64,000 bases of DNA, from the NCBI RefSeq assembly GCF_036370855.1, contig NC_088135.1:62001-126000 (forward strand), written 5' to 3'. The stretch comes from Dromaius novaehollandiae. Taxonomy: Eukaryota. The notes beneath the pieces are model-generated. The model was given only the letters and a program-made list of their open reading frames with translations. It searched no databases and was not told where the DNA came from. A program made the position numbers and the translations under genes. Shown here piece after piece: positions 13,818-33,560 of the stretch (position 1 is its first letter; the number at the start of each line of letters is the position of its first letter).

Positions 13818-13884
13818 GGTGGGTGGAGCCTCCATCGTGGGCGGAGCCTGTTGTGGGCGGAGCCTCCGGGCGAGGGGGGCGGGG

Positions 13885-13924
13885 TCAATCGCGCCAGGTG
13901 ACCTCCACCTCGTCCGTGCGGTAG
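13885..13924 (-). CDS. OSGEP: OSGEP exon 11 (terminal): (R)[12 protein letters not shown]
   Basis: Acceptor ccccacag|C TAC. The TGA is the reverse complement of tca at 13885-13887. Confidence 0.85.
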
Positions 13925-16900
13925 CTGTGGGGAAAGGGGGCGGGGTTAGGGGGCGGGGCTTGCTGGAGCCCCGCCCCCCTCGGCGGGGTAGGGGGCGGGG
14001 CTTGGCGCCCGGACGCCTGGGCCCCTCTCACCGCTGGGTGACGCCGGAGCGGGCGATGTCGGTGACCTGCCCCGAGCGCAGCATCTCCCAGCCGGCCTGA
14101 GCGATCATGGCGCCGTTGTCCACGCAGAACCTGGGGGCGGGGCGGAGCTGGGACGCCTGGGCCCCTCGGCCGGACGCCTGGGCCCTTTCCTGGGACACCT
14201 GGATCCTTTCCCGGACGCCTGGGCCCCTCACTCGGACGCCTGGGCCCTTTCCCGGACGCCTGGGCCCCTCTCCCGGACGCCTGGGCCCTTTCCTGGATCC
14301 CTGTCTCCCTTCCCCGGACGCCTGGGCCCTTTTCCTGGACGCCTGGGCCCCTCCCCGGACGCCTGGGCCCCTCACCGCTCATCAGTGGCGCAGAGCCGGA
14401 TGCCCCGGGCGCTGCACATGGTTCCCAGCATCTCCTGGAGCCGCTCGTTACCTTGGGGGAGGGGGGAGAGAAACGAGGAGGGGTCAGAGGTCGGGCCCGG
14501 ACGCCTGGGCCCCTTTCCCGGACGCCTGGGCCCTTTTCCCGGACGCCTGGGCCCCTTTCCCGGACGCCTGGGCCCTTTTCCCGGACGCCTGGGCCCCTCT
14601 CCCGGACGCCTGGGCCCCTTCCCCGGACGCCTGGGCCCTTTTCCCGGACGCCTGGGCCCCTTTCCCGGACGCCTGGGTCCCTTTCCCGGCCGCCTGGGCC
14701 CCTTTCCCGGACGCCTGGGCCCCTTTCCCGGACGCCTGGGCCCTTTTCCCGGACGCCTGGGCCCCTTTCCCGGACGCCTGGGCCCCTCTCCCGGACGCCT
14801 GGGCCCTTTCCCGGACGCCTGGGCCCCTTTCCCGGACGCCTGGGCCCTTTTCCCGGACGCCTGGGCCCCTTTCCCGGACACCTGGGTCCCTTTCCCGGCC
14901 GCCTGGGCCCCTCATCCCGGACGCCTGGGCCCCTCTCCCGGACGCCTGGGCCCCTCTCCCGGACGCCTGGGCCCTTTTCCCGGACGCCTGGGCCCTTTCC
15001 CGGACGCCTGGGCCCCTTCCCCGGACGCCTGGGCTCCTCTCCCGGACGCCTTGGGCCCTTTCCCGGACGCCTGGGCCCCTTCCCCGGACGCCTGGGCCCC
15101 CTTTCCCGGACGCCTGGGCCCCTTTCCCGGACGCCTGGGCCCCTTCCCGGACGCCTGGGCCCCTCCCGGACGCCTGGGCCCCACGTACAGCCGACGCCGC
15201 CCACCAGCAGCACCTCGGGGCTCCGGCACTGGGCGGCCGCTCGCTCCGTCACCTCCACCAGCATCGCGAAGACCGTCTCCTGCGCCGGGGCCCCAAAATC
15301 CCCTCGATTCACCCCAAAATACCTCCCGGAACCCCCCCCCGACCCCCCCCAACCTTCCCGGAACAAAAACGCCTGAAATCGCCCCAAAAAACCCTCCCTC
15401 GGGGCCTTAAACACCCCCAAATAACCCAAAATACTCCAAAACGGCCCCAAAAATACCCCAGATTGGCCCAAATACCCCCAAATTACCCCCAAATTGCCCC
15501 AAATACCCCAAACTGCCCCAAATACCCCCAAAATGCCCCAAATTTCCCCAAATTACCCCCAAATACCCCCAAACTGCCCCCAAAACCCCTCGATGGCTTG
15601 AAATACCCCCAAATACCCATAAAATGCCCCAAATACACTCCAACTGCCCCAAATACCCCCAAAATTACCCCCAAAACCCTTCGATGGCTTCAAATACCCC
15701 CAAATTCCCCCAAATTCCCCCCAAAACCCTTTGATGGCTTCAAATATCCCCAAATACCCCCAAATTGGCCCAAATACCCCCAAATTACCCCCAAATTCCC
15801 CCAAATTCCCCCCAAAACCCTTTGATGGCTTCAAATATCCCCAAATACCCCCAAAATGCCCCAAATACCCCCAAATTGTCCCAAATACCCCCAAATTACC
15901 CCCCAAACACTTCAATGGCTTCAAATACCCCCAAATACCCCCAAAATGCCCCAAATACCCCCAAATTACCCCCAAATACCCCCAAATTACCCCCAAAACC
16001 CTTTGATAGCTTCAAATATCCCCAAATGCCCCCAAACTGCCCCAAATACCCCCAAATTACCCCCAAAACCCTTTGACGGCTTCAAATACCCCAAAATTCG
16101 CCCAAATTCGCCCAAACTCGCCCAAATTGCCCCCAAATGGCCCCGCCCCCCCCCCGCCCGGACGCCTGGGCCCCGGCGCCGACCTGCAGCGAGAAGCAGA
16201 GATCCTCGACGGTGGCTTCGCCCGAGGCCAGGAGCTGCGGGGCCACTGCCTGCGGGGGGACGCCGGGGCCCTCACCGGACGCCTGGGCCCCTTCCCGGAC
16301 GCCTGGGCCCTTTCCCGGACGCCTGGGTCCCTTTCCCGGATGCCTGGGCCCCTTTCCCGGACGCCTGTGCCCCTTCCCGGACGCCTGGGCCCCTTTCCCG
16401 GACGCCTGGGCCCCTCTCCCGGACGCCTGGGCCCTTTTCCCGGACGCCTGGGCCCTTTCCCGGACGCCTGGGCCCCTTTCCCGGACGCCTGGGCCCCTTC
16501 CCCGGACGCCTGGGCCCCTTTCCCGGACGCCTGGGCCCCTTTCCTGGATTCCTGCCCCCCTCCCCGGACGCCTGGGCCCCATTCCCAGACGCCTGGGCCC
16601 TTTTCCCGGACGCCTGGGCCCCTCCCGGATGCCTGGGCCCCTCTCCCGGACGCCTGGGCCCCTTTCCCGGACGCCTGGGCCCCTCCCCGGACACCTGGGC
16701 CCCTCTCCCGGATGCCTGGGCCCTTTCCCGGATGCCTGGGCCCTTTCCCGGACGCCTGGGCCCCTTTCCCGGACGCCTGGGCCCCTCTCCCGGACGCCGG
16801 GGCCCCTTTCCCGGACGCCTGGGCCCTTTCCCGGACGCCTGGGTCCCTTTCCCGGATGCCTGGGCCCCTTTCCCGGACGCCTGTGCCCCTTCCCGGACGC

Positions 16901-19900
16901 CTGGGCCCCTTTCCCGGACGCCTGGGCCCCTTTTCCCGGACGCCTGGGCCCTTTCCCGGACGCCTGGGCCCCTTTCCCGGACGCCTGGGCCCCTTCCCCG
17001 GACGCCTGGGCCCCTCTCCCGGACGCCTGGGCCCCTTTCCTGGATTCCTGCCCCCCTCCCCGGACGCCTGGGCCCCATTCCCAGACGCCTGGGCCCTTTT
17101 CCCGGACGCCTGGGCCCTTTTCCCCGGACGCTTGGGCCCCTCCCGGATGCCTGGGCCCCTCTCCCGGACGCCTGGGCCCCTTTCCCGGACGCCTGGGCCC
17201 CTCCCCGGACACCTGGGCCCCTCTCCCGGATGCCTGGGCCCTTTCCCGGACGCCTGGGCCCTTTCCCGGACGCCTGGGCCCTTCCCGGACACCTGGGCCC
17301 CTCTCCCAGGACGCCTGGGCCCCTTTTCCCGGACGCCTGGGCCCTTTTCCCGGACACCTGGGCCCCTCTCCGGGACGCCTGGGCCCCTCCCGGACACCTG
17401 GGCCCCTCCCGGACGCTTGGGCCCCTCCCCAGACGCCTGGGCCCCTCCCGGACGCCTGGGCCCCTCCCGGACGCCTGGGCCCCTCACCTCGATGTGCGAC
17501 AGGAGGCCGGAGAAGGAGACGTCGAGGCCCTTCACGACGTACGGCAGCTCCAGCAGCTTCGTCCCCCTGCGGCCGCAGCCCCCCCCGACCCCGTCAGGGG
17601 CCCAGGCGTCCGGGAAAGGGCCCAGGCGTCCGGGAGGGGCCCAGGCGTCCGGGACGCCGCCCTTCCCCCCCCCCCAACACTCACTTTTTAGCCAGTTGCT
17701 CGATGTTGTAGCCGGGACTGGGGTCGTTGGAGATCTGCGGGGGGAGGGCGGGAGTTGGCGGGGGCCCAGGCGTCCGGGAGGGGCCCAGGCGTCCGGGAAA
17801 GGGGCCCAGGCGTCCCAGAGAGGGCCCAGGCGTCCGGGAAAGGGCCCAGGTGTCCGGGGAGGGGCCCAGGCGTCCAGGGAGGGGCCCAGGCGTCTGGGAA
17901 AAGGGGCCCAGGTGTCCGGGAAAGGGGCCCAGGCGTCCGGGAAAGGGGCCCAGGCGTCCAGGGAGGGGCCCAGGCGTCCGGGAAAAGGGGCCCAGGCGTC
18001 CGGGAAGGGGCCCAGGCGTCCGGGAAAGGGGCCCAGGTGTCCGGGAAGGGGCCCAGGCGTCCGGGAAGGGGCCCAGGCGTCCGGGAAAAGGGGCCCAGGT
18101 GTCCAGGAAGGGGCCCAGGCGTCCGGGAGGGGCCCAGGCGTCCGGGAAAGGGGCCCAGGCGTCCGGGAAAGGGGCCCAGGTGTCGGGAAGGGGCCCAGGC
18201 GTCCGGGAAAAGGGGCCCAGGCGTCCGGGAAAAGGGCCCAGGCGTCCGGGAAAGGGGCCCAGGCGTCCGGGAAAAGGGGCCCAGGTGTCCGGGAAAGGGG
18301 CCCAGGCGTCCGGGGAGGGGCCCAGGCGTCCGGGAGGGGCCCAGGCGTCCGGGAAAGGGGCCCAGGCGTCCGGGGAAGGGGACAGGAATCTGGGGAGGGG
18401 CCCAGGCGTCCGGGAAAGGGGCCCAGGCGTCCGGGGAAGGGGACAGGAATCTGGGGAGGGGCCCAGGCGTCCGGGAAAGGGGCCCAGGCGTCCGGCACCT
18501 GCAGCCCCCGGGCGAAGCGATCCAGGCAGTTGCCCACGGCGACGTCCAAGGTTTCGCCCAGGATCCGGTAGCGGCGCCGCGAGAAGGCGATGACCTGGGG
18601 GGGAGAAAAACATGCGTGTCATCGCGTGTCATCGCATGTTATCACGTGTTATCATGTGTTATCGCGTGTTCTCCCACACCGATCCGTGTTATCCCGTGTG
18701 CCGCCCGCTCCCGCCGCCATGGCCGCCGCCACGGGCCTCTGTGTCCCCCCGGGAGCGATACATGTCACAGCGTGTTGTCACGTGTTATCGCGTGTTATCG
18801 CGTGTCGGCCCCCGCGACGCGGAGCGCAGGGTGGCCACGGCCTCCGTGTCGTTACGTGTAACCTCGCGGCCGCCATTTTGGCGTGCGGGGCGTCGCGTGT
18901 CGAGGCGTGTCGAGGCGTGTCGTTGGCGTGTACCTGCGTGTTGCCGCCGCTGACGTAGAGGACCAGGGGGTCGCGGGCGCCGCACACCAGCCGCCCCATC
19001 TCGATGTGCCCCACGCAGTGGTTGACCCCCAGCAGCGGCCGCCCCCACAGCTGCGCCAGCGTCCGGGCCACCGCCGCCACCGTCGCCAGCGGCGCCCCCA
19101 TGCCGGGGCCTGCCGAGCACACGCCAAGCACACGCTAAGGTCACGGGGGCCCCCCGCCACCCCCACACGCCTCCCGTGGGGCTGGGACACCGCTACGACC
19201 CTCCCCAGGGCCCCTGGGACACAAAATGGCTGCACATGTTAAGCACATGCTAAGAACATGCTAAGCACATGTGGCTCATTTGGTGCCCCATGGGCCTCCC
19301 ATACCCCCCACACGCCTCCCGTGGGGCTGGGACACCGCTACGACCCCCCCCAGGGCCCCTAGAATGTAATATGGCTGCACATGCTAAGCACATGCTAAGA
19401 ACATGCTAAGCACATGTGACCCATCTGGTGCCCCATGGGCCTCCCATACCCCCCACATGCCTCCCATGGGGCTGGGACACCGCTACGACCCTCCCCAGGG
19501 CCCCGGGACACAAAATGGCTGCACATGCTAAGCACATGCTAAGAACATGCTAAGCACATGTGACCCATTTGGTGCCCCATGAGCCTCCCATACCCCCCAC
19601 GGGTCTCCCATGGGGCTGGGACACCGCTATGACCCCCCCCAGGGCCCCTGGGACACAAAATGGCTGCACATGCTAAGCACATGCTAAGCACATGCTAAGC
19701 ACATGTGACCCATTTGGTGCCCCATGGGCCTCCCATACCCCCCACGGCTCTCCCATGGGGCTGGGACACTGCTACGACCCTCCCCAGGGCCCCTGGGACA
19801 CAAAATGGCTGCACATGCTAAGCACATGCTAAGCACATGCGACCCATTTAGTGCCCCATGGGCCTCCCATACCCCCCACGGGTCTCCCATGGGGCTGGGA

Positions 19901-21720
19901 CACCGCTATGACCCCCCCTAAGGCCCTTAGGACACAATATGGCTGCACATGCTAAGCACATGCTAAGAACATGCTAAGCACATGTGACCCATTTGGTGCC
20001 CCATGGGCCTCCCATACCCCCCACATGCCTCCCATGGGGCTGGGACACCGCTACGACCCTCCCCAGGGCCCCTGGGACACAAAATGGCTGCACATGCTAA
20101 GCACATGCTAAGCACATGCTAAGAACATGTGACCCATCTGGTGTCCCAGGGCCCCCCTATGACTCCCAGGTGTCTTCTATGGGGCTGGGACACATCTATG
20201 ACCCTCTTCAAGGCACCTAGGACACGATATAACTGCACATGCTAAGCACATGGTAAGCACATGTAAGCCCTACGGCGTCCCTATGGGCCCAAATGGCTCC
20301 CTGGGGCCTCCCAGGTGCTCGGGAGGCATCTGGGAGCCCCCAAAGGCCCCTTGGGCACTGTGGGAGCGCACACGCTAACAACACGCTAAGCATATGCTAA
20401 GCACATGTGAGCCCTACGGCGTCTCTGTGGCCCCAAACGGCTCCCTGGGGCCTCCCAGGTGCTCGGGAGGCATCTGGGAGCCCCGAAAAAGCCTCACGGC
20501 CATGATGCAAGCGCACACGCTAACAACACGCTAAGCACATGCTAAGCACATGTGACCTCTACGGCGCCTCAATGGCCCCAAACGGCTCCCTGGGGCCTCC
20601 CAGGTGCTCGGCAGGCGCCTGGGAGCCCCCGCGGCGGCCGGGGGCGGGGGAAGGGGCCACGCACACGCTAAGCACACGCTAAGCACACGCTAAGCACACG
20701 CCAGGGACACGCCGGGGACACACGCACCGCGGGTGAAAGCGACGGCGTCGACGTGGTGGGGTCGCAGCCCGGCCTCCCGCAGCGCCGCCGCCACCAGCCC
20801 CAGCACCCGGCGCCGGTGGTGCCGCGCCGCCCCGCCCGGGGCGAAGCCTGCCGGGGTCACGGCGGGGTCGCCGTGAGGTCACGGGGTCACGGCGGGGTCA
20901 CGGGGTCACGCGGAGGTCACGCGGGGGTCACGCGGGGTTGTGGCGGGGTCACGGGGGGGTCACGCGGGGTCGTGGCGGGGTCACAGCGGGGTCGTGGCGA
21001 GGTCACGGGGTCACGGTGAGGTGACAGCGGGGTCACGGGGTCATGCAGGGGGTCACATGGGGGTCACACGGGGTGGTGGCAGGGTCGCAGGGTCACAGTG
21101 GGGTCACACGGGTCACGGGGGGTCACGGTGGGGTCACAGGGGGCCGATGACGTCACGGGGGGTTGCCGTGGGGTCACATGGGGTCGTGGCGGGGTCCTGG
21201 TGGGGTCACGGGGGGGTCACGGGGGCGCGATGGGGTCACGCCAGGGTCGGGGAGGGTCACGGTGGGTCAAGGGGGCGCGGTAGGGTCACATGGAGGTCAC
21301 ATGGGGGTCACGTGGGGGTCATGGGGGTCACGGCAGGGTCACGGGGTCAGGGCGGGGACTCGGGGTGTCCCCGGGGTCATGGGGTCGCGGGGGGGGGTCA
21401 CACGGGGGTCAGGGGTCACGCGCGGGGGGTGGAGCCCCAGGGCCACGTGGCGCCGGGGGGGGCGGGGCCAGCGGTCACGTGGGCGGCCGGCGGGGGGAGC
21501 GCCAAGGGGTCCCGCGCGCGGGGGGGAGGGGGGGAGCCCGCGGAGGAGGGGGGCGCGGTGACGTCACGGGGGCGCGGTGACGTCACGGGGGGGCGGGGCG
21601 CTCACCCTGGCCGGGCGCCGTGACGTAGGTGGCGCGCGGGTTGCTCAGCACCTGCCCGTCGCGCACCAGCCCCGCCCCCACCTTGTTGGCCGAGCCCTCC
21701 AGCCCCAGCACCACCGGCAT
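13885..21720 (-). CDS. OSGEP: OSGEP (Kae1, the tRNA t6A N6-threonylcarbamoyltransferase catalytic subunit), complete 11-exon CDS of 335 codons
   Basis: The eleven exons sum to 1008 nt including the TGA, which equals the 335 aa of human OSGEP. All junctions are GT/AG with consistent phases. The translation is [49 protein letters not shown]...[41 protein letters not shown]...[12 protein letters not shown], collinear with human OSGEP. Confidence 0.9.
14032..14130 (-). CDS. OSGEP: OSGEP exon 10: (R)[32 protein letters not shown](R)
   Basis: Acceptor cccccag|G TTC, donor CAG CG|gtgagag, 99 nt. Confidence 0.85.
14376..14451 (-). CDS. OSGEP: OSGEP exon 9: (C)[24 protein letters not shown](R)
   Basis: Acceptor ccccaag|GT, donor GAG CG|gtgagg, 76 nt. 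Confidence 0.85.
15189..15279 (-). CDS. OSGEP: OSGEP exon 8: [30 protein letters not shown](C)
   Basis: Acceptor ggcgcag|GAG, donor GGC T|gtacgt, 91 nt. Confidence 0.85.
16184..16249 (-). CDS. OSGEP: OSGEP exon 7: [22 protein letters not shown]
   Basis: Acceptor cccgcag|GCA, donor CAG|gtcggc, 66 nt. Confidence 0.85.
17488..17566 (-). CDS. OSGEP: OSGEP exon 6: (K)[26 protein letters not shown]
   Basis: Acceptor ccgcag|G GGG, donor GAG|gtgagg, 79 nt. Confidence 0.85.
17685..17734 (-). CDS. OSGEP: OSGEP exon 5: [16 protein letters not shown](K)
   Basis: Acceptor ccgcag|ATC, donor AAA AA|gtgagtg, 50 nt. Confidence 0.85.
18499..18594 (-). CDS. OSGEP: OSGEP exon 4: [32 protein letters not shown]
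   Basis: Acceptor ccccag|GTC, donor CAG|gtgccg, 96 nt. Confidence 0.85.
18934..19109 (-). CDS. OSGEP: OSGEP exon 3: (G)[58 protein letters not shown]
   Basis: Acceptor ctcggcag|GC, donor CAG|gtacac, 176 nt. Contains the Kae1 metal-binding motif HxxGH. Confidence 0.85.
19130..20720. repeat. Approximately 120 bp tandem repeat carrying GCTTAGCATGTGC / GCTTAGCGTGTGC motifs, about 12 copies, in OSGEP intron 2
   Basis: The unit ...atggctgcacatgctaagcacatgctaagaacatgctaagcacatgtgacccatttggtgccccatgggcctcccatacccccca... repeats with a period of about 120. The same GCTTAGCGTGTGC motif reappears at 51990-52340 and 57560-57600. Confidence 0.85.
20728..20847 (-). CDS. OSGEP: OSGEP exon 2: (G)[39 protein letters not shown](G)
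   Basis: Acceptor ccggcag|GC, donor CGC G|gtgcgt, 120 nt. The 5' boundary could lie up to about 20 nt further upstream within a GTGACCCCG repeat. Confidence 0.75.
21606..21720 (-). CDS. OSGEP: OSGEP exon 1: [38 protein letters not shown](G)
   Basis: The ATG is the reverse complement of cat at 21718-21720. Donor CAG G|gtgagcg, 115 nt. Confidence 0.85.
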
Positions 21721-22797
21721 GACGTCAGCGCCTGCGTCACCACCCGCCCCCCCGGTCACCGCCGCTCCCGCTGCTCCCGCCGCGCCGCTCCGAACTCTCC
21801 GCTTCCGGCCGCGCGCTGCGCCCCCACTTCCGCTTCCGGCAGCGCGCCGCCCACTTCCGCCCGCACTGCCGCCCTACTTCCGCCCGCGCTGCGCTGCCTC
21901 ACTACTTCCGGTCGTGCCACCGCCCTACTTCCGCCCTCACCGCCTCCCTACTTTCGCCCACACTGCGCTGCCTCACTACTTCCGGTCGTGACACTGCCCT
22001 ACTTCCGCCCTCACCGCCTCCCTACTTCCGCCCGCACTGCGCGGCTTCGCTACTTCCGCCCGCGCCGCCTCCCTACTTCCGCCCGCGCCGCGCCGCCTCC
22101 CTACATCCGCCCGCCCGGCGCTCCTCCTCCTTCCGCTTCCGGCCCCGCCCCTTCCGCCCGCGTGCGTCCAGCGGCGGCGGCAGCAGCGGAGCTTCTCCCC
22201 GCTCCTCCCCCCCCCACCGCCGCTCCCGCGGGCGCTGATTGGCTGCGAGGGGCCCCCCCCGTGCCCCGCCCCCACCGGAGCGGCGCGGCGGGCGCTGATT
22301 GGCTGCGAGGGGCTTTTCGCCCCCCCCCCACCGTGCCCCGCCCCCACCGGAGCGGCGCGGCGAGGCGAACCGGGCGGCGCTGATTGGTTCGGAGCGGCGC
22401 GGCGGGCGCTGATTGGCTGCGGCGGGGTGGTGGCCGGGGGGGGGGGAGGGGGGGGCGGAGGCGCGGGGGGGGGGGGGGGCGAGCTACGGCGCGCGCTGAT
22501 TGGCCGCGCCGCGCGTGGGGGGGGGGGCGGGCTTTGCCTTCACGGGCGCTCCTGATTGGCCGGGCCCGCGCGGCGCGCGCTGATTGGCCGAGGCGCGCGG
22601 AAGGGGCGGGGCTTCGCGCCTCCCCTCTTCCCCCCCCCCCCCCCCCCCCCCCACAACGGCCGGTTCCTCTCCAGGGAGGCGGCGCCGAGCGAGGGGGCGT
22701 GGCCTGCCGCCGAGGGGGCGTGGCCTGCCGCCGAGGGGTGTGATCTGCCGCCGAGGGGGCGTGGTCTGCCGCCGAGGGGGCGTGGCCTGCAGCCGCC
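21721..22797. promoter_or_regulatory. Bidirectional CpG-island promoter shared by OSGEP(-) and APEX1(+), which are head to head about 1.08 kb apart
   Basis: There are at least 12 tandem ETS/GABP-type motifs (plus-strand ACTTCCG(C/G), reading CGGAAGT on the other strand) between 21780 and 22140. Seven CCAAT boxes of the form GCGCTGATTGGC(C/T) lie between 22230 and 22590. A CRE palindrome TGACGTCA at 21721-21728 abuts the OSGEP ATG. Confidence 0.6.
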
Positions 22798-22864
22798 ATG
22801 CCGAAGCGGAGCAAGAAGGAGGCGGCGGAGGGAGACGCTGGGAAGGAAGCGGCCGCTGAGACCG
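22798..22864 (+). CDS. APEX1: APEX1 coding exon 1: [22 protein letters not shown](G)
   Basis: ATG at 22798, donor ACC G|gtacgg. Confidence 0.8.
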
Positions 22865-25800
22865 GTACGGACCAGTTTGGACCAGTATAAACCAGTATGG
22901 ACCAGTATAAACCAGTATAGACCAGTATAGAGCAGTTTAGACCAGTATAGACCAGTATAGACCAGTATAAACCAGTATAGACCAGTATAGACCAATATGG
23001 GTTGGGGCTCCCTCCCACTGTCCTCCCCAGGCCCCCCAGTGCCCTCCCAGTGCCTCCCAGTATGTCCCAGTGGCTCCCAGTAGCCCCCCCAATATGTCCC
23101 AGTGGGCCTCCAGTGCCGTCCCAGTATGTCCCAGTGTTGTCCAGTACTTCCCAGTATCTCCCAAGGCCGTCCCAGCATCACCCAGTGCCTCCCAGTATCT
23201 CCCAGTCCCCTCCCAGTAGCCCCTAGTGCCCTCCCAGTTCACCCAGTCCCCTCCCAGTGCCTCCCAGGGCCCCCCCAGCTCCCCCCTAGACCCTCCCCAG
23301 TGCCCCCCAGTGCCCCCCAAACCCCCCCCAGTGCCTCCCGGTCCCTTCCCAGTGCCCCCCAGTGCTTCGCAGTGCCTCCCAGTGCCCCCCAGTGCCCCCC
23401 AGACTCTCTCCAGTGCCCCCCAAACCCTCTCCAGTACCTCCCAGTGCCCCCCAGTGCCTCCCAGTGCCCCCCAAGTCCTCTCTAGACCCTCCCCAGTGCC
23501 CTCCCAGTGCCTCCCAGTGCCCCCCAAATCCCCTCTAGACCCTCCCCAGTGCCTCCCAGTGCCCTGCAAGCCCCCCTAGACCCTCCCCAGTGCCTCCCAG
23601 TGCCCTGCAACCCCCCCTAGACCCTCCCCAGTCCCTCCCAGTGCCCCCCAGTGCCTCCCAGTCCCCCCCCAGTGCCTCCCAGTGCCTCCCAGTGTCTCCC
23701 CAGTGCCTCCCAGTGCCTCCCAGTGCCTCCCAGTGCCCCCCAAATCCCCTCTAGACCCTCCCCAGTGCCTCCCAGTGCCCTGCAAGCCCCCCTAGACCCT
23801 CCCCAGTGCCTCCCAGTGCCCCCCAGTGCCTCCCAGTCCTCCCCCAGTGCCTCCCAGTGCCTCCCAGTGTCTCCCCAGTGCCTCCCAGTGCCCCCCAGTG
23901 CCTCCCAGTGCCCCCCAAGTCCTCTCTGGACCCTCCCCAGTGCCTCCCAGTGCCTCCCAGCACCCCCAAGTCCCCTCTAGACCCTCCCCAGTGCCTCCCA
24001 GTGCCCCCCAGTGCCTCCCAGTGCCCCCCATATCCCCTCTAGACCCTCCCCAGTGCCCACCTAGTCCCCCCCAGACCCTCCCCTGTCCCCCCCAGACCCT
24101 CCCCAGTGCCTCCCAGTGCCCCCCAGTGCCTCCCAGTGCCCCCCAAATCCCCTCTAGACCCTTCCAAGTGCCCCCCAGTGCCTCCCAGTGCCCCCCAGTG
24201 CCTCCCAGTGCCCCCCAAGTCCCCTCTAGACCCTCCCCAGTGCCTCCCAGTCCCCCACAGTGCCTCCCAGTGCCTCCCAGTGCCCCCCAGTGACGCCGGC
24301 TCCCCCCCCCACGCAGGAGGGCGCCCCCCGAAGGCCCCGCGGGGCGACGGGGGGGAGGCGGCGCCCTACGAGGACCCCCCCGACCGGCTGACGTCACCGG
24401 GGGGGCAGCGCTTCACCCTCAAGGTGACGTCGTGGAACGTCGACGGCCTCCGCGCCTGGGTGCGCAAGCAGGGCCTGCAGGTGAGCAGGGGCCCAGGCGT
24501 CCGGGAGAGGGGCCCAGGCGTCCGGGAGAGGGGCCCAGGCGTCCGGGAGGGGCCCAGGTGTCCAGGAGAGGGGCTCAGGTGGGCAGGGAGGGGCCCAGGC
24601 GTCCGGGAAAAGGGCCCAGGCGTCCGGGGAGGGCCCAGGCGTCCGGGAGGGGCCCAGGAGTCCGGGGAGGGGCCCAGGCGTCCGGGGAGGGGCCCAGGTG
24701 TCCAGGAAGGGGCCCAGGTGGGCAGGGAGGGGCCCAGGCGTCTGAGTAAAGGGCCCAGGCGTCCGGGTGAGGGTCCAGGCGTCAGGGAAAAGGGCCCAGG
24801 CGTCCAGGAAGGGCCCAGGAGTCTGGGAAAAGGGCCCAGGCATCCGGGAAGGGGCCCAGGCGTCCGGGAGAGGGGCCCAGGCGTCCGGGTGAGGGCCCAG
24901 GCGTCCGGGGAGGGGCCCAGGCATCCAGGAGGGGCCCAGGCGTCCGGGAAAGGGGCCCAGGCGTCCGGGAGAGGGGCCCAGGCGTCCAGGTGAGGGGCCC
25001 AGGTGTCCGGGAGGGGCCCAGGCGTCCAGGAAAGGGCCCAGGCATCCGGGAAAGGGGCCCGGGTGTCCGGGGACGGGCCCAGGCGTCCGGGAGAGGAGCC
25101 CAGGTGTCCGGGGAAGGGCCCAGGCGTCCGGGAGAGGGGCCCAGGCGTCCGGGGAGGGGCCCAGGCGTCCTGGAAGGGTCCCAGGCGTCCTGCCACCCCC
25201 CCCCCGTGTCCCCCCCCCGGCAGTGGGTGCAGGAGGAGGCCCCGGACGTGCTGTGCCTGCAGGAGACCAAGTGCGCGGGGGGGGCGGTGCCCCCGGAGGT
25301 GCGGGCCCTGCCCGGCCTCCCCCACCAGTTCTGGGCCAGCGCCGAGGGCAAGGCCGGCTACAGCGGCGTGGGGCTGCTGGCCCGCCACGAGCCCCTCAGC
25401 GTCACCTACGGCATCGGTGAGTCCCCCCCCGGCCCCCAAAATGCTCCTTTCTGCCCCAAACCGGCGTCGTGCTGCCCCAAAATACTCTTTTGTTACTCCA
25501 AAATACTCTTTTTCTGCTCAAAAACGCTCTTTTCTATCCCAAAATGGCATCGTTGTACCCCAAAACACTCTTTTGTTACTCCAAAATACTCATTTTCTAC
25601 TCAAAAAGGCTTTTTTCTACCCCAAAATGGTGTCGTCGTACCCCAAAATACTCTTTTGTTACTCCAAAATGCTCGTTTCCTGCTCGAAAACGTTCTTTTC
25701 TGTCCCAAAATGGCGGCATCATACCCCAAAAACTCTTTTTTGTTACTCCAAAATACTCTTTTGTTACTCCAAAATACTCTTATCCCGCTCGAAAACGCTC

Positions 25801-28800
25801 TTTTCTGTTCTAAAATGGCGTCGCTGTACCCCAAAATACTCTTGTTACTCCAAAATACTCATTTGTTGCTCCAAAATACTCTTTCCCCGTTCGAAAACGT
25901 TCTTTTCTGTCCCAAAATGGCGTCGTAGTACCCCGAAACTCTCATTTGTTACTCCAAAATACTCATTTTCTACCCAAAAAGGCTCTTTTGTACCCTAAAC
26001 TGGGCTTGTGCTACCCCAAAATGCTCATTTGTTACTCTAAAATACTCTTCCTACTCAAAAACGCTCTTTTCTATCCCAAAATGGTGTCGTACTACCCCAA
26101 AATACTCATTTGTTGCTGCAAAATACTCTTCCCACTTGAAAATGCTCTTTTCTGTCCCAAAATGGCATGGGGCTGCTGGCCCGCCACGAGCCCCTCAGCG
26201 TCACCTACGGCATCGGTGAGTCCCCCCCCGGCCCCCAAAGTGCTCCTTTCTGCCCCAAACCGGCGTCGTGCTGCCCCAAAATACTCCTTTGTTACTCCAA
26301 AATACTCTTTTCCCGCTCGAAAACGCTCTTTTCTATCCCAAAATGGCATCGTTGTACCCCAAAACACTCTTTTGTTACTCCAAAATACTCTTTTCCCGCT
26401 CGAAAATGATCATTTCTATCCCAAAATGGTGGCATCGTACCCCAAAATACTCTTTTGTTACTCCAGAATACTTTTTTCCCGCTCGAAAACGCTCTTTTCT
26501 ATCCCAAAATGGCGTCGTTGTACCCTAAAATACTTTTGTTACTCCAAAATACTCATTTCCTACTCAAAAAGGCTGTTTTCTACCCCAAAATGGTGTCGTC
26601 GTACCCCAAAATACTCTTTTGTTACTCCAAAATACTCTTTTCCCGCTCGAAAAAGTTTTTTTCTGTCCCAAAATGGCGCCATCATACCCCAAAAACTCTT
26701 TTTTCTTACTCCAAAATACTCGTTTGTTACTCCAAAATACTCTTATCCCGCTCGAAAACACTCTTTTCTGTCCTAAAATGGCGTCGCTGTACCCCAAAAT
26801 ACTCTTGTTACTCCAAAATACTCATTTGTTGCTCCAAAATACTGTTTTCCCGCTCGAAAACGCTCTTTTCTATCGCAAAATGGTGTCATCGTACCCCAAA
26901 ATACTCTTTTGTTACTCCAAAATACTTTTTCCCGCTCGAAAACGCTCTTTTCTATCCCAAAATGGCGTCGTTGTACCCCGAAACTCTCATTTGTTACTCC
27001 AAAATACTCATTTTCTACCCAAAAAGGCTCTTTTCTACCCTAAACTGGGCTTGTGCTACCCCAAAATGCTCATTTGTTACTCTAAAATACTCTTCCTACT
27101 CAAAAACGCTCTTTTCTATCCCAAAATGGTGTCGTACTACCCCAAAATACTCATTTGTTGCTGCAAAATACTCTTCCCACTTGAAAATGCTCTTTTCTGT
27201 CCCAAAATGGCATGGGGCTGCTGGCCCGCCACGAGCCCCTCAGCGTCACCTACGGCATCGGTGAGTCCCCCCCCGGCCCCCAAAGTGCTCCTTTCTGCCC
27301 CAAACCGGCGTCGTGCTGCCCCAAAATACTCTTTTCCCGCTCGAAAATGCTCTTTTCTATTCTAAAATGGCGTTGTTGCACCCTAAAATACTGTTGTTAC
27401 TCCAAAATACTCTATTGTTGCTCCAAAATATTCTTTTCCCACTGAAAAATGCTCTTTTCTATCCCAAAATGGTGTCGTCCTACCCTAAAATACTCTTTTG
27501 TTACTGCAAAATTCTTATTTCCTACTCCAAAAGACTCTTTTCTACCCCAAAATGGTGTCATCGTACCCCAAAATACTCCTTTGTTACTCCAAAATATTCT
27601 TTTCCTGGTCGAAAATGCTCTTTTTTGTCCCAAAATGGCATCGTCGTACCCCAAAAACCTCTTTTGTTACTCTGAAATACTCATTTGTTACTACAAAATA
27701 CTCTTTCCCGCTCAAAAATGCTCTTTTCTATCCCAAAATGGCATCGTCATACCACAAAACTCTCATTTGTTACTCCGGAATACTCATTTGTTACTCCAAA
27801 ATACTCTTTCCCACTTGAAAATGCTCTTTTCTATCCCAAAATGGCATCATAGTACCCCAAAATATTTGCTACTCCAAAATACTCATTTGTTACTCCAAAA
27901 TACTCTCTTCCCGCTCGAAAATGCTCTTTTCTATCCCAAAATGGCGTTGTTGTACCACAAAACTCTCATTTGTTACTCCAAAATACTCATTTGTTACTCC
28001 AAAATACTCTTTTCCCGCTTGAAAATGCTCTATTTTATTCCCAAATGGTGTCATAGTACCCCAAAATACGCATTTGTTATCCCAAAATACGCATTTGTTA
28101 CTCAAAAATGCTCTTTTTTACCCCAGACTGGGCTCCTGCTACCCCAAAGTACTCTTTTGTTACTCCAAAATACTCTTTTCTCGCTCGAAAACGCTCTTTT
28201 CTATCCCAAAACGGCGTTGTGGTACCCCAAAATACTCATTTGTTACTCCAAAGTACTCATTTGTTACCCCAAAGTACTCTTTTGTTACTCCAAAATACTC
28301 TTCCCACTCGAAAACGCTCTTTTCTATCCCAAAATAGCATTGTGGTACCCCAAAATACTTATTTGTTACTCCAAAATACTCATTTGTTACTCCAAAGTAC
28401 TCTTTTCCCGCTCAAAAATGCTCTTTTCTGTCCCAAAATGGCGTGATAGTACCCCAAAATACTCGTTTGTTACTCCAAAATATTAATATTCTACTCTAAA
28501 ATGCTCTTTTCTACCCCAAGCTGGCCTCTTGCTGCCCCAAAACACTCCCTTGTTGCCCCAAAATACCCATTTGCCACCCTGAAATACTCTTTTTTGCCCC
28601 AAACTGGCCTCGTAGTACCCTGAAGAACTCATTTGTTACTCAAAAATACTCATTTCCTACCCTAAAATGCTCTTTTCTGTCCCAAACTGGGCTCGTGCTG
28701 CCCTGAAATACTCATTTTGTCCCTCTTCTGCCCCCGTTCCGTCCATCTGCTCCTCTTTCATCCATCTCCTGTTCCATCCATCTCCTGTTCCATCCATCTT

Positions 28801-30264
28801 GTCTTATTCCATCTATTTTTTGCTCCCATTTGCTCCATCTTTCTCCATTCCATCCATCTTCTTCTGTTCCATCTTCTCCTCCTGCTCCATCCATCTCCTC
28901 CCGCTCCATCCATCTCCTCCTCCTGGTTCCCTCCATCTTCTCCTGCTCCATCCATCCATCTTCTCCTGTTTCGTCCATCTTTTCCTGTTTCGTCCATCTT
29001 CTCCCATTTCATCCATCTTCTGTTTTTCTATCCATCTTCTCCCGTTTCATCCATCTCCTCCTGTTCCATCCATTTTGTCCTGCTCCATCCATCCATCTTG
29101 TCCTGCTGCATCCATCCATCTTGTCCCACTCCATCCATCTTGTTCTGCTCCATCCATCCATCTCCTCCTCCATCCATCCATCCATCTCCTCCTCCATCCA
29201 TCCATCTCCTGCTCCATCCATCCATCTCCTCCTCCATCCATCCATCTCCTGCTCCATCTATCCATCTTGTCCTCCTCCATCCATCCATCTTCTGCTGCTC
29301 CATCCATCCATCTCCTGCTCCATCCGTCCATCTCCTCCTGCTCCATCCATCCATCTCCTCCTCCATCCATCCATCTTGTTCTCCTCCATCCATCCATCTT
29401 CTGCTGCTCCATCCATCCATCTCCTCCCGTTCCATCTTCTCCTCCATCTCCTGCTCCATCCATCCATCTCCTTCTCCATCCATCCATCTTGTTCTCCTCC
29501 ATCCATCCATGTCCTTCTCCATCCATCCATCTTGTCCTCTTCCATCCATCCATCTCCTCCTGTTCCATCCGTCTTCTCCCGTTCCATCCATCTTCTCCCG
29601 TTCCATCCATCTCCTCCTCCATCTCCTGCTCCATCCATCCATCTCCTCCTCCATCCACCCCTCCCTTCCCGTCCCCCCCATCACCATTTCCCCCCGTTTC
29701 CCCCCCGTTTTTCACCGTTTCCCCCCCGTTTCCCCCCACAAAACCGCAGGCGACGAGGAGCACGACCGCGAGGGCCGCGTCCTCACCGCCGAGTTCCCCG
29801 CCCTCTTCGTGGTGGCCGCCTACGTCCCCAACGCCGGCCGCGGCTTGGCCCGCCTGGGCCGCCGTACCCGCTGGGACGCCGCCTTCCGCGCCTTCCTCGC
29901 CCGCCTCGACGCCCGCAAGCCCGTGGCCCTCGCCGGCGACCTCAACGTGGCCCACGGCCCCCTCGACCTCCGCCACCCCCGCGCCAACCGCCGGGCGCCC
30001 GGCTTCACCGACGAGGAGCGCGGGGCCTTCACCGCCCTCCTGGACGCCGGCTTCATCGACTCCTTCCGCCACCTTTACCCCGCCGTGCCCCACGCCTACA
30101 CCTTCTGGACCTACTTGGGGGGCGCCCGGGCCCGCAACGTGGGCTGGCGCCTCGACTACTTCGTCCTCTCCCGGCGGCTCCAAGGGGCCCTTTGCGACAG
30201 CAAGATCCGCTCCAAGGTCATGGGCAGCGACCACTGCCCCATCACGCTCTACCTGGCCCTATAG
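22798..30264 (+). CDS. APEX1: APEX1 (APE1/Ref-1, AP endonuclease 1), complete CDS in 4 coding exons, 312 aa
   Basis: Exon lengths 67+164+193+515 = 939 nt, in frame. The translation is collinear with human APEX1: ...[38 protein letters not shown]|[17 protein letters not shown]...[20 protein letters not shown]|[15 protein letters not shown]...[12 protein letters not shown]...[12 protein letters not shown]. Confidence 0.9.
24317..24480 (+). CDS. APEX1: APEX1 coding exon 2: (G)[54 protein letters not shown]
   Basis: Acceptor cccacgcag|GA, donor CAG|gtgagc, 164 nt. Confidence 0.85.
25224..25416 (+). CDS. APEX1: APEX1 coding exon 3: [64 protein letters not shown](G)
   Basis: Acceptor ccccccccggcag|TGG, donor ATC G|gtgagt, 193 nt. 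Confidence 0.85.
25420..28700. repeat. AT-richer 30-40 bp satellite (CCAAAATACTCTTTTGTTACTCCAAAATACTC...) in APEX1 intron 3, containing two extra copies of the exon-3 3' end plus donor
   Basis: The fragments tggggctgctggcccgccacgagcccctcagcgtcacctacggcatcggtgagtcccccccc at about 26166-26222 and 27213-27270 duplicate 25367-25423. Confidence 0.9.
28700..29700. repeat. CCATCCATCT(CCTC) satellite in APEX1 intron 3
   Basis: ccatccatctcctcctgctccatccatccatct... Confidence 0.85.
29750..30264 (+). CDS. APEX1: APEX1 coding exon 4 (terminal): (G)[32 protein letters not shown]...[12 protein letters not shown]
   Basis: Acceptor aaaaccgcag|GC, TAG at 30262-30264, 515 nt. Confidence 0.9.
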
Positions 30265-31700
30265 CTGCCCTATAGCCCTCTAAGCCTGGTTTATATGGGG
30301 CTGGGGTCTTCCATGTTGGGTTGTGATGGTCCCATCACACTCTACCTGGCCCTATAGCTGCCCTATAGCCCCCTAAGCCTGGTCTGTATGGGGCTGGGGT
30401 CTTCTCCGTTGGGTCATGATGGTCCCATCAAGCTCTGCTTGGCCCTATAGCTGCCCTATAGCCCTCTAAGCGTGGTCTGTATGGGGCCATCGTGGTCCTT
30501 CTGGGGTCGTGATGGTCCTATCATGCTCTACCTGGCCCTATAGCTGCCCTATAGCCCCCTAAACCTGGTCTATATGGGGCTGGGGTCTTCTCCGTTGGGT
30601 TGTGATGGTCCCATCACGCTCTACCTGGCCCTATAGCTGCCCTATAGCCCCCTAAACCTGGTCTATATGGGGCTGAGGTCTTCCATGTTGGGTTGTGATG
30701 GTCCCATCACGCTCTACCTGGCCCTATAGCTGCCCTATAGCCCCCTAAGCTTGGTCTATATGGGGCTGAGGTCTTCTCCGTTGGGTTGTGATGGTCCCAT
30801 CATGCTCTACCTGGCCCTGTAGCTGCCCTATAGCCCCCTAAGCTTGGTCTATATGGGGCTGAGGTCTTCCATGTTGGGTTGTGATGGTCCCATCACGCTC
30901 TACCTGGCCCTATAGCTGCCCTATAGCCCCCTAAGCGTGGTCTGTATGGGGCCATCGTGGTCCTTCTGGGGTCGTGATGGTCCTATCATGCTCTGCTTGG
31001 CCCTATAGCTGCCCTATAGCCCCCTAAACCTGGTCTATATGGGGCTGGGGTCTTCTCCGTTGGGTCATGATGGTCCCATCACGCTCTGCTTGGCCCTATA
31101 GCTGCCCTATAGCCCCCTAAACCTGGTCTATATGGGGCTGAGGTCTTCTCCGTTGGGTTGTGATGGTCCCATCACGCTCTACCTGGCCCTATAGCTGCCC
31201 TATAGCCCCCTAAACCTGGTCTATATGGGGCTGGGGTCTTCTCCGTTGGGTCGTGATGGTCTCATCAAGTTCTGCTTGGTCTTATAGCTGCCCTATAGCC
31301 CTCTAAGCTTGGTCTATATGGGGTTGAGGTCTTCTATGTTGGGTTGTGATGGTCCCATCATGCTCTACCTGGCCCTATAGCTGCCCTATAGTCCCCTAAA
31401 CCTGGTCTATATGGGGCTGGGGTCTTCTCCGTTGGGTCATGATGGTCCCATCAAGCTCTGCTTGGCCCTATAGCTGCCCTATAGCCCTCTAAGCGTGGTC
31501 TGTATGGGGCTGAGGTCTTCTCCGTTGGGTTGTGGTGGTCCCATCATGCCCTACTTGGCCCTATAGCTGCCCTATAGCCCCCTAAACCTGGTCTATATGG
31601 GGCTGAGGTCTTCTCCGTTGGGTTGTGATGGTCCCATCACGCTCTACCTGGCCCTATAGCTGCCCTATAGCCCCCTAAATCTGGTCTGTACGGGGCCATC
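30265..31700. repeat. Approximately 93-105 bp tandem repeat of about 16 copies, each retaining the last 8 codons plus stop of APEX1 (CCCATCACGCTCTACCTGGCCCTATAG)
   Basis: The first copy is the genuine APEX1 3' end at 30238-30264. ...gtgatggtcccatcacgctctacctggccctatagctgccctatagcc... then recurs at about 30334, 30424, 30527 and so on up to about 31650. Confidence 0.9.
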
Positions 31701-33560
31701 ATGTTTTTGGGGGGCTCACGATGGTCCCACCAACCTCCGACCCTATAGCCGCCCACCCCGCAGCCCCATAAGTCCAGTCTATAGGGGCCTCTCGTGCTCC
31801 GTTTAGGGTCAGGATGGTCCCATCAACCCCCGCTTGACCCTATAGGTCTCCTACAGCCCCATAAGTCTCGTCAGAGGGCCCCCCCCAGCCCCTATGGACC
31901 TATAGGGACCCCCCGCAACCCCTCTACCCCCCCATAGGGCCCTATAGCCCCCCCCAATTTATAGAGCCCTATATAGGGCACTGTATAGCCCCCCGAGCTG
32001 TATAGATCTCGTCATCCCCTATAGACCCGCAACCCCTATAGCCCCCCTTGATGTGTATAAGCCCCCCCCCCCAGGCCCTATAGCACCCCTGCCCCCCGCT
32101 CAGCCCATATGGACCCACCACCCTATAGGCTCCCTGTGACCCCTATAGGCTCCCTGTGACCCCCCTATAGCCCCATTGGCCCCCCCAGCCCCTATAGACC
32201 CAACATCCGTAGTGCCCCCGACCTCCTATAGGCTCCCTGGGCCCCTATAGCATTCTTTGGCCCCTACAGACCCCCCCCCAGCTCCTATAGACCCAGCACC
32301 CATAGCTCCCCATGGCCCCTATAGCCTCCCCAGGCCATATAGACCCCACACCCCTAGCGCCTCCGATCCCCTATAGGCTCCCCGTGACCCCTATAGCCCC
32401 CATTGGCCCCATAGACCCCCCCCCAGCCCCTATAGACCCAACACCCGTAGTGCCTCTGACCCTCTATAGGCTCCCCGTGACCCCTATAGCCCACTTTGGT
32501 CTGTATAGACCCCCCCCAGCTCCTATAGGCCCTGCACCCATAGCTCGCCATGATGCCTATACCCCCTTTGGTCCCTATAGACCCCCCCACAAGCTCCCCC
32601 AGACCCTACAGACCCAAGACCCATAGCTCCCCTGATCCTCTATAGGGTCCCCATGACCCTTACAGCCCCCTTTGGCCCCTGTAGACCACCCTGCAGCCCC
32701 TATAGACCCAACACCCCTAGCTCCCCTGACTTCCTATAGGCTCCCCATGGTCCCTGTAGCCCCCCTTGGCCCCTATAGATCCCCCCTCAGCTCCTATAGA
32801 CCCAGCACCCATAGCACCTCCGATCCCTTATGGGCTCCCCATGACTCCTATAGCCCCCATTGACCCTTATAGACCCCCCCCGCCCCTATACATCCAACAC
32901 CCCTAGCTCCCCAGTCCCCTATAGGCTCCTCGTGACCCCTATAGCCCCCACTGGCTCCTATAGATCCCCCCAAGCCCCTATAGCCCCTATAGACCCAACA
33001 CCCATAGCTCCCCCATAGGCTCCCTATGATCCCTATAGGCTCCCTGTGACCCCCTATAGCCCCCCCAGCCCCTATAGACCCCCCCAAGCCCCTATAGTCC
33101 CCCCAGCCCCTATAGACCCCCCCAAGCCCCTATAGTCCCTACGCCCATAGCTCCCCCATAGGCTCCCTATGACCCCTATAGGCTCCCTGTGACCCTCTAT
33201 AGCCCCTCCAGCCCCTATAGACCCCCCAAGCCCCTATAGTCCCCCCAGCCCCTATAGACCCCCCCAGCCCCTATAGTCCCTACGCCCATAGCTCCCCTAT
33301 AGGCTCCCTATAACCCCTATAGGCTCCCTGTGACCCCCTATAGCCCCCCCAGCCCCTACAGACCCCCCCCAAGCCCCTATAGCCCCCCCCAGCCCCTATA
33401 GATCCAACGCCTATAGCTCCCCCATAGGCTCCCTATGACCCCTATAGGCTCCCTGTGACCCCCTATAGCCCCCCCGAGACCTATAGCCCCCCCCGCCACC
33501 TATATAGTTCCCGACGTCCCCTATAGCCCCTCCCCCAGCCCCTATAGCCCCTCCCCCCCC
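31700..33560. repeat. CCCTATAG-containing low-complexity satellite
   Basis: Units such as cccctatagccccc / tataggctccctgtgacccctatagcc. Confidence 0.8.

Follow-up and report, generated by a model that had tools for sequence, protein, structure and literature searches.

The stretch of emu (Dromaius novaehollandiae) DNA analysed here, referred to as the window, is 64 kb long and represents the OSGEP–APEX1–TMEM55B locus. Its GC content is ~70% and TRF covers 85.5% of it with tandem repeats. The contig of origin, 987,576 bp in length, appears to be a dot chromosome, judging from synteny with chicken chromosome 34, contig size, GC and repeat content. Our model of APEX1 comprises four coding exons which, like all features described below, lie on the + strand and are given in window coordinates, with a slash marking exon borders and junctions: exon 1 at 22798–22864 (ATG at 22798, donor G/GTACGG), exon 2 at 24317–24480, exon 3 at 25224–25416 (193 nt, phase 1, ending in ...TACGGCATCG/GTGAGT) and exon 4, the last exon, at 29750–30264 (stop codon TAG at 30262–30264). 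The predicted protein of 312 aa is 100% identical to emu XP_064359398.1, in agreement with the assignment to APEX1 made in a preliminary description of this sequence, and the open reading frame is intact and collinear with APEX1 of ostrich, tinamou, mallard and malkoha.

The 3' edge of APEX1 exon 3 occurs three times. A search with the 54-nt string TGGGGCTGCTGGCCCGCCACGAGCCCCTCAGCGTCACCTACGGCATCGGTGAGT, i.e., 48 nt of exon 3 followed by GTGAGT, returned three + strand matches in the window with 0 mismatches (25369–25422, 26168–26221 and 27213–27266), while the chance expectation is 0 (matches in 0/100 dinucleotide-preserving shuffles). The stretch common to all three copies extends over 119 nt and consists of 48 nt of exon (25369–25416 in the source, positions 146–193 of the 193 in exon 3, i.e., the exon border) and 71 nt of intron. 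The source copy with the genuine GTGAGT donor, A1 (25369–25487), is followed by the two extra copies A2 (26168–26286, decoy donor at 26215/26216) and A3 (27213–27331, decoy donor at 27260/27261) at spacings of 799 and 1045 bp. A1 and A2 differ at a single one of the 119 positions (25441, A/G), and A2 and A3 at none. The preliminary description had located the three copies to within 1–3 nt and had correctly named the 3' end of exon 3 with its donor as their source; the ~70 nt of intron reported there correspond to the 71 nt found, and the exon part, given as ~49 nt, measures 48 nt. When non-repeat blocks throughout the window were screened for further exon-edge copies, APEX1 exon 3 alone was recovered, plus matches to a dispersed 21-bp satellite.

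The host intron is covered by TRF to 98% and holds two satellite domains. The first, of the CCCAAAAT type (25430–28717; periods of 21, 83 and 104 bp), counts as AT-rich only by comparison with the surrounding sequence (42% GC at 26001–28000 vs. ~70% in the window), and the second, of the TCCATCCATCTCCTCC type, lies at 28736–29664 with periods of 19–23 bp. The AT-rich satellite had previously been recognized as such but with a period of 35 bp, whereas TRF returns a basic period of 21 bp and higher periods of 62, 83, 102–104 and 166 bp. Each exon-edge copy stands at the head of a higher-order unit: U1 (25369–26167, 799 bp) consists of A1 and satellite, U2 (26168–27212, 1045 bp) of A2 and satellite, and U3 (27213–28700, ~1490 bp) of A3 and more diverged satellite. 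The units were compared by global pairwise alignment; self-BLAST of intron 3 gave only long alignments of low identity through the satellite. Over 799 aligned columns, U1 and U2 share 97.0% identity; they are distinguished by 24 substitutions and by two indels of 164 and 82 bp that equal whole satellite periods. U3 shows 100% identity in its first 119 nt only and is ~13% diverged thereafter (~87% identity to U2). Spacings and unit identity bear out the earlier proposal of a tandem segmental duplication of ~0.8–1.05 kb that included exon edge and satellite. The blocks spanning the junctions are more alike than the units as a whole: the last 240 nt of U2 together with A3 differ from the last 240 nt of U1 together with A2 by 1 mismatch in 359 nt (P = 2e-4 relative to the 3% average), which indicates that two or more events took place at different times, or that conversion occurred recently.

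The junction between satellite and exon sequence, AAAATGGCA/TGGGG, is found at 26159–26172 and again at 27204–27217. Here, a microhomology of 5 nt links the satellite motif AAAATGGC(A/G)T-CG to exon GGCGT-GGGG; of the 15 instances of this motif in the satellite, 2 continue into exon sequence. A junction placed in a GGC(R)T microhomology to a recurrent satellite motif suggests that the event was microhomology-mediated. The satellite monomer is similar to the native start of intron 3 and to the less expanded intron of ostrich. Very probably, the CCCAAAAT-type satellite in intron 3 of emu APEX1 is built of three tandem higher-order repeat units, each headed by one of the three copies, and the copies represent exon stuttering. 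In the proposed course of events, the native 5' end of intron 3 would have been amplified into the 21/83-bp satellite, and a block of ~0.8–1 kb, starting 48 nt inside exon 3 and running through the donor into the satellite, would then have been tandemly duplicated at least twice. The new junction would have arisen between satellite AAAATGGC(R)T and exon GGCGT, by unequal exchange, replication slippage or template switching, or end joining, and the genuine exon 3 would have been left unaltered by these duplications. Two other sources of repeated intronic sequence were rejected. A transposon or retro-copy origin does not fit copies that are arrayed in tandem with a common orientation, keep register with the satellite units and contain intron sequence, and an intronic tandem ncRNA cluster (e.g., snoRNA arrays) is out, as an Rfam cmscan of positions 22000–32500 matched nothing at E ≤ 0.1.

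Exon stuttering has been described for genes of chicken dot chromosomes, a GC-rich and repeat-dense euchromatin: lateral exon parts including a splice site are copied into the adjoining intron, leaving the coding exon unharmed (Hron et al. 2026, Genome Biol Evol 18:evag038; PMC12954441). Introns with stuttering are also expected to vary extensively in length between individuals. The published cases comprise exon parts of 20–187 bp in 1–44 copies; the expansions were inferred to be independent and recent, and their mechanism was left open (PMC12954441). Chicken OSGEP, on dot chromosome 34, is on the published list, and APEX1 is absent from the text of the supplement (PMC12954441). The published screen employs blastn-short with a cut-off of >42.1 bits and a length of at least 20 nt, the proximal match lying in the intron that adjoins the source exon. 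When this screen was repeated on the emu sequence, each of the two copies scored 95.6 bits for a 48-nt match of 100% identity, compared with a maximum of 26.3 bits in shuffled sequence. The source sequence ends at the exon border (published tolerance, ≤1 nt), and the block that was copied crosses the exon–intron junction with the splice site; the host intron is 98% tandem repeat, with a satellite monomer similar to the native intron start and to the ostrich intron; and the coding exon and protein of APEX1 are intact. Due to this fit to the published description, the emu copies of the exon 3 edge are classed as exon stuttering, an already published phenomenon.

Both decoy donors are intact, with consensus GTGAGT and G at −1, and identical to the genuine donor from −48 to +24. 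From the genuine donor to the last decoy there are just 14 AG dinucleotides, none of them a plausible acceptor. The strongest candidate is a weak aaaaAG/G, 234 nt upstream of a decoy, and the corresponding 234-nt pseudo-exon, read by eye (G/GC TCT TTT GTA CCC TAA), reaches a stop after five codons. That the decoys are perfect donors lacking an upstream acceptor, as the preliminary description had it, is thus upheld by sequence identity and by the survey of AG sites. The accompanying statement that splicing from the downstream donors would not change the protein is wrong, because extension of exon 3 to the decoys would keep 799 or 1844 nt of intron and the read-through frame from exon 3 meets a stop ~170 codons past the exon end. 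Any use of a decoy would consequently yield an intron-retaining mRNA with a premature stop. Since the decoys are half-exons without an upstream acceptor, exon definition would select donor 1, at a distance of 193 nt from the acceptor of exon 3, and the sole annotated emu APEX1 protein uses this donor. Judging from sequence context, the decoy donors are presumably not used, and the triplication probably leaves the APEX1 protein unaffected. Classical work on duplicated 5' splice sites shows that the site closer to the acceptor can be an effective competitor, so that the decoys might be used to some extent, with the transcripts then subject to NMD.

The exon 3 edge of APEX1 is also present in three copies in a tinamou (Eudromia elegans, GCA_047922985.1), where it has its own species-specific sequence. 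The tinamou copies start at TGGGGCTGCTGG, i.e., at the same 48-nt boundary as in emu, to the nucleotide. The unit sizes are 969 and 948 bp vs. 799 and 1045 bp in emu, and the two satellite domains of intron 3 have the same order in both species. The monomer directly 5' of the junction is TTTTCTG(T/C)CCCAAAAT in emu and tinamou alike, a variant that within the tinamou satellite occurs at its two junctions only, and the junction filler is GGCA in emu vs. CCCCCTATTGCCCCGGGGCCC in tinamou. Exon changes specific to tinamou are present in every tinamou copy, and every emu copy has the emu/ancestral sequence. In both extra copies of tinamou the donor is mutated from GT to GG, which suggests that intact decoys could be not fully neutral. 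A blastn-short screen of APEX1 in ostrich, owl, cormorant and pigeon found no exon-edge copies. Mallard and malkoha, represented like the tinamou by independent long-read assemblies, have other APEX1 exon edges stuttered. The 5' edge of exon 3 is stuttered in tinamou (27 nt) and mallard (30 nt); these events are surely independent, and their boundaries lie 3 nt apart, which demonstrates that near-coincident boundaries do occur.

Assembly of dot-chromosome sequence is known to be difficult, and a false tandem expansion or mis-join in a region that is 98% tandem repeat could in principle have created the extra emu copies, a view to which the near identity of A2 and A3 with their 240 upstream nucleotides (1 mismatch in 359 nt) lends some weight. 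We consider such an assembly artefact highly improbable, as false duplications are normally near-identical throughout, whereas U1 and U2 differ by 24 substitutions and two whole-period indels and U3 is ~13% diverged past its first 119 nt; moreover, the independent Eudromia elegans assembly GCA_047922985.1 displays the same three-copy arrangement with species-specific sequence. The whole 4.3-kb intron 3 is shorter than typical HiFi reads. As another alternative, the decoys might be functional, either as alternative 5' splice sites generating NMD-targeted transcripts that tune the APEX1 level or as U1 snRNP landing pads preventing premature polyadenylation of a long intron. Their match to the genuine donor from −48 to +24, with consensus GTGAGT and G at −1, would accord with such roles, as would the remark of Hron et al. 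that such copies 'create potential alternatively spliced transcripts'. Functional decoys are nevertheless unlikely: conservation of the copies is no higher than neutral (at 3% divergence, 54 nt would stay free of mismatches with a probability of 0.19) and a selection test of the A segment against the remainder is not significant (Fisher P = 0.24), the GT is lost in the tinamou copies, ostrich, owl, cormorant and pigeon have no copies, and the one annotated emu protein uses donor 1. Suppression of intronic polyadenylation in particular is unsupported, as both AATAAA and ATTAAA are absent from intron 3. The emu copies appear to be neutral.

Emu and tinamou split tens of millions of years ago, after ostrich had branched off. 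There is an even chance, in our estimation, that their triplications are independent, the shared 48-nt boundary then reflecting a break or recombination hotspot or coincidence. The species-specific exon sequence in the copies of each species, the different junction fillers (GGCA in emu, CCCCCTATTGCCCCGGGGCCC in tinamou) and the near-coincident 5'-edge boundaries of tinamou and mallard argue for independence, as does the report of Hron et al. that different expansions are usual in orthologous introns of related species. Against it stand a boundary that is the same to the nucleotide (the TGGGGCTGCTGG start), the presence of three copies in both species with similar unit sizes and the same order of satellite domains, and the same TTTTCTG(T/C)CCCAAAAT monomer 5' of the junction. 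A single origin, which we judge to fall somewhat short of an even chance, would mean that the triplication is orthologous: the stutter would predate the emu–tinamou split and would have persisted, its copies being kept like the exon of their own species by gene conversion, with the donors later disabled in tinamou (GT to GG) and intact in emu. If orthologous, the triplication would speak against the view of stutters as recent and species-specific, and sequence exchange between decoy copies and coding exon would still be ongoing.

Emu APEX1 contains a second exon-edge stutter. A 93-bp tandem array of 15.7 copies (30238–31696) involves the edge of exon 4 and reaches past the stop codon, its first unit being composed of the last 27 nt of the CDS (PITLYLAL*) and the first 66 nt past the stop. 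The repeated 3' end of the last exon, the tandem repetition across the locus and the prior publication of exon stuttering are points beyond the preliminary description.

The emu copies extend exon stuttering, resolved to the base, from chicken to a palaeognath and to an essential DNA-repair gene, and their readable GGC(R)T microhomology junction bears on the mechanism of stuttering. APEX1 is a repeated target in birds, and as emu, tinamou, mallard and malkoha differ in the exon edges hit, it is a convenient comparative model. The boundary shared by emu and tinamou raises the question of whether copies may be retained, and undergo concerted evolution, over tens of millions of years. At this locus, natural experiments on splice-site choice are available: the decoy donors are intact in emu and mutated in tinamou, and mallard and tinamou have decoy acceptors. 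Decoy half-exons in such regions can also mislead gene prediction and read mapping.

Several known systems share features with the emu array. Higher-order repeat (HOR) organisation is a property of satellites such as primate alpha satellite. Similarly, the emu monomers (21/83 bp, ~65–85% alike) are grouped into units that are 97% alike (U1/U2), and unit lengths shift by whole monomers, as expected of unequal exchange. Unlike HOR alpha satellite, the emu array is intronic and non-centromeric, comprises three units and holds a piece of a coding exon. Experimentally duplicated 5' splice sites were reportedly studied by Reed and Maniatis in 1986 and in later competition studies; emu likewise has identical donors with identical exon flanks upstream of one acceptor. 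The emu sites differ in being natural and 0.8–1.8 kb apart, and in a vertebrate gene the donor that pairs with the acceptor of exon 3 should be preferred through exon definition. Tandem exon duplication that gives rise to mutually exclusive or alternative exons, reportedly described by Kondrashov and Koonin in 2001 and by Letunic and colleagues in 2002, also places tandemly duplicated exonic sequence within a gene, but there whole exons with both splice sites are duplicated and spliceable, whereas in emu the copy is a half-exon with one splice site. The closest likeness is to the exon stuttering of Hron et al.: a lateral exon part with splice site and intron is tandemly copied into a repeat-saturated intron of a GC-rich gene, the 48-nt exon part and the 2 extra copies fall within the published ranges, and OSGEP, the neighbour of emu APEX1, is on the chicken list. 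Differences are that emu is a palaeognath whereas the published screen concerned chicken, that the emu copies head long higher-order units (0.8–1.5 kb) instead of short blocks, and that the same boundary is found in a second, distantly related species, the tinamou.

The 54-nt string TGGGGCTGCTGGCCCGCCACGAGCCCCTCAGCGTCACCTACGGCATCG|GTGAGT, made up of the 3' edge of APEX1 coding exon 3 and its splice donor, occurs three times on the plus strand with 0 mismatches (exact search and reading of 24800–29000). The genuine copy (A1) lies at 25369–25422 and the two extra copies at 26168–26221 (A2) and 27213–27266 (A3); none of 100 dinucleotide-preserving shuffles contained a match. All three have 119 nt in common (48 nt exonic, 71 nt intronic), across which a single base (25441) sets the first copy apart from the second and third, themselves without any difference. 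The exact search (25369/26168/27213) thus bears out the copy coordinates and spacing given in the preliminary description: the feature is real and rightly placed, and a tandem segmental duplication of the exon edge is the right reading. The satellite, described there as a 35 bp repeat, has instead a TRF base period of 21 bp, with higher periods of 62, 83, 102–104 and 166 bp.

Modelling by tblastn with human APEX1 and reading of splice sites placed four coding exons on the plus strand, at 22798–22864, 24317–24480, 25224–25416 and 29750–30264. All have GT/AG borders, the open reading frame is 312 aa long, and emu APEX1 XP_064359398.1 (source contig 987,576 bp) is 100% identical to the modelled protein over its full length. 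OSGEP lies upstream and TMEM55B/PIP4P1 downstream, both on the minus strand, a layout also seen in the other birds fetched. GC content of the window is ~70% and TRF coverage 85.5%; the TRF-free blocks correspond to exon positions. As chicken OSGEP is located on dot chromosome 34 (Hron et al., PMC12954441), the emu contig is very probably the counterpart of a dot chromosome.

Repeats are found throughout this locus. At 22690–22795, just upstream of the APEX1 start codon, ~5 tandem copies of the 21-bp CCGCCGAGGGGGCGTGGCCTG with a GC-box-like GGGGCGTGG lie within the ~1-kb interval common to APEX1 and the divergently oriented OSGEP. The intron 1 and 2 satellites (22865–24292 and 24481–25190) start a few bases past their donors, G|GTACGG being followed by GACCAGTATA repeats and CAG|GTGAGC by GGGGCCCAGGCGTCCGGGAGA repeats, and some intron 2 repeat variants contain donor-like strings (CCAGGTGAGG). 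The core of the 21-bp intron 2 satellite, GGGCCCAGGCGTCCGGG, occurs 510 times on the plus and 311 times on the minus strand of the whole window (≤2 mismatches), scattered through intronic and intergenic DNA of several genes (e.g., 4.5–17.6, 24.5–25.2, 33.7, 37, 41.3 and 54 kb), and therefore represents a dispersed satellite family and not a strictly local expansion. A 93-bp array (30238–31696, 15.7 copies, 88% matches) starts within the final 27 coding nt of APEX1 and repeats PITLYLAL, the stop codon and the 66 nt after it ~15 times downstream; 30265–33500 contains no AATAAA or ATTAAA.

The three exon-edge copies head higher-order units in the intron 3 satellite: U1 (25369–26167, 799 bp), U2 (26168–27212, 1045 bp) and U3 (27213 to about 28700). 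U1 and U2 align at 97.0% identity (775 matches, 24 mismatches), and the alignment has just two gaps, one of 164 bp (two satellite periods) and one of 82 bp (one period). U3 matches U2 perfectly over the first 119 nt; beyond that, identity falls to only ~87% and 21-bp indels are numerous. When A2 and A3 are each taken together with the 240 nt before them (the ends of U1 and U2, respectively), they show 1 mismatch in 359 nt, far below the expectation from the 3% average (P=2e-4). Such low divergence points either to two or more events that differ in age or to recent conversion. The duplication junction reads ...CTCTTTTCTGTCCCAAAATGGCA|TGGGGCTG, with GGCGT|GGGGCTG on the exon side; AAAATGGC(A/G)T is found 15 times in the satellite, usually followed by CG(T/C)... 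Because satellite motif and exon both carry GGC(R)T, we place the breakpoint inside this 5-nt microhomology. Similarity of the satellite monomer to the intron's native start, and to the weakly repeated intron of ostrich, supports a local origin. In ostrich intron 3, a few degenerate, non-tandem emu-type monomers (TACCCCAAAACGCTC..., TTACTCCAAAATACTCC; locus positions 9900–10300) lie beyond a 33-bp satellite unlike that of emu (8858–9713), and look like the emu satellite before expansion or after decay.

The consequences for splicing can be predicted from the sequence. The decoy donors, the GTGAGT sites of A2 and A3, equal the genuine donor from −48 to +24 and would therefore be rated equally by any local scoring model. 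From the real donor to the last decoy, AG occurs only 14 times. A pseudo-exon of normal size could be defined only by candidate aaaaAG|G acceptors, which lie 234 nt upstream of each decoy and have poor tracts; it would start G|GC TCT TTT GTA CCC TAA (frame by eye). The preliminary description held that use of the downstream donors, if spliced from the genuine exon 3, would leave the protein unchanged, which is wrong: joining a decoy to exon 4 would retain 799 or 1844 nt of intron in the mRNA, and the exon 3 frame read into the intron meets a stop ~170 codons in. Neither AATAAA nor ATTAAA occurs in intron 3, and the annotated protein (XP_064359398.1) uses the first donor. Exon definition accounts for the tolerance of half-exons with one splice site. 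Conservation of the emu copies does not exceed the neutral expectation; the triplication is most likely neutral, and functional decoy donors find no positive support.

We compared the APEX1 loci of ostrich, elegant crested tinamou, little owl, great cormorant, mallard, chestnut-breasted malkoha and band-tailed pigeon, repeating the published blastn-short screen for exon-edge copies at each. Tandem repeats make up 45–98% of intron 3 across all compared loci, and collinearity is kept in all annotated APEX1 proteins. The screen recovered the two extra exon 3 3' edges in emu, together with seven or more copies of the exon 4 3' edge, and no exon-edge copies in ostrich, owl, cormorant and pigeon. 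In the tinamou (Eudromia elegans, 8617–21232 of its locus), nearly every APEX1 exon edge is stuttered: two extra exon 3 3' edges, ten exon 3 5' edges in intron 2 (27 nt and an intact AG acceptor, junction CACGTG|AC), three exon 2 edges (two of the 3' edge, with GGTGAG donors) and, downstream, five copies of the exon 4 3' part (78–163 nt). Mallard (8739–17616) has six extra exon 3 5' edges in intron 2 (30 nt, acceptor and upstream intron) and, in intron 3, three copies of the exon 4 5' part (146 nt) with intact AG acceptors; the exon part is 100% identical in all, leaving intact decoy acceptors. Malkoha (Phaenicophaeus curvirostris, 7218–8947) has one exon 2 3' edge and one terminal exon piece (acceptor, 180 nt and stop; 100% identity, 8768–8947). 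Its last coding exon, uninterrupted in emu, ostrich, owl and cormorant, is split at CCGCAG|GTAGCG...CCCCGCAG|GTCCC by ~507 bp of a ~120-bp satellite, which occupies the 3' flank as well. Read-through meets a stop (frame by eye), so splicing would be required, and the interruption is a candidate intron gain via exon stuttering at AG|GT.

The tinamou copies of the exon 3 3' edge start at the exact nucleotide of the emu copies (TGGGGCTGCTGG, 48 nt before the exon end). There are likewise three, and the units they head (969, 948 and 732 bp) are ~90% alike. Both introns contain two satellite domains in matching order, CCCAAAAT type then TCCATC type, and in both species the monomer immediately 5' of the junction is TTTTCTG(T/C)CCCAAAAT, a variant present in the tinamou satellite only at its two junctions. 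An ancestral duplication with concerted evolution and independent events at a hotspot appear to us about evenly balanced. The hotspot reading gains from copies that bear their own species' exon sequence, from junction filler that is not alike, and from the exon 3 5'-edge boundaries (27 nt in tinamou vs. 30 nt in mallard), by which near-coincidence can arise independently. Both extra tinamou copies have GGTGAGT changed to GGGGAGG (donor GT to GG), and the donor holds 2 of the 3–4 differences from the genuine copy within the first 67 nt; post hoc and weakly, this hints at selection against intact decoys. That the extra emu copies were created by the assembly is unlikely, as substitutions and indels of whole periods distinguish the units and the same design recurs in the independent assembly of the tinamou. 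A transposon or retro-copy origin was ruled out by the anatomy of the copies, and an ncRNA cluster by Rfam search.

Sequence stuttering and exon stuttering were described on chicken dot chromosomes (Hron et al., bioRxiv 2025; Genome Biol Evol 2026, PMC12954441), and no further paper using the latter term was found in the literature searched; another preprint mentions that emu, too, has dot chromosomes rich in minisatellites. In exon stuttering, the adjacent intron gains copies of a lateral exon part with its donor or acceptor while the exon stays intact (PMC12954441). In chicken it affects 115 genes and 236 introns, with exon parts of 20–187 bp (median 36), 1–44 copies and spans of 112–23,555 bp; OSGEP is among these genes, and APEX1 is unnamed in the accessible part of the supplement text. 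The expansions were inferred to be independent and recent in different species, and the candidate mechanisms considered were meiotic non-crossover conversion and, alternatively, replication stress or G4 structures combined with end joining (PMC12954441). On every sequence-level criterion tested, the emu feature agrees with published exon stuttering (PMC12954441), and we regard the APEX1 triplication as an instance of it, one that makes a modest addition through a resolved junction, higher-order units, a palaeognath host and a boundary common with tinamou.
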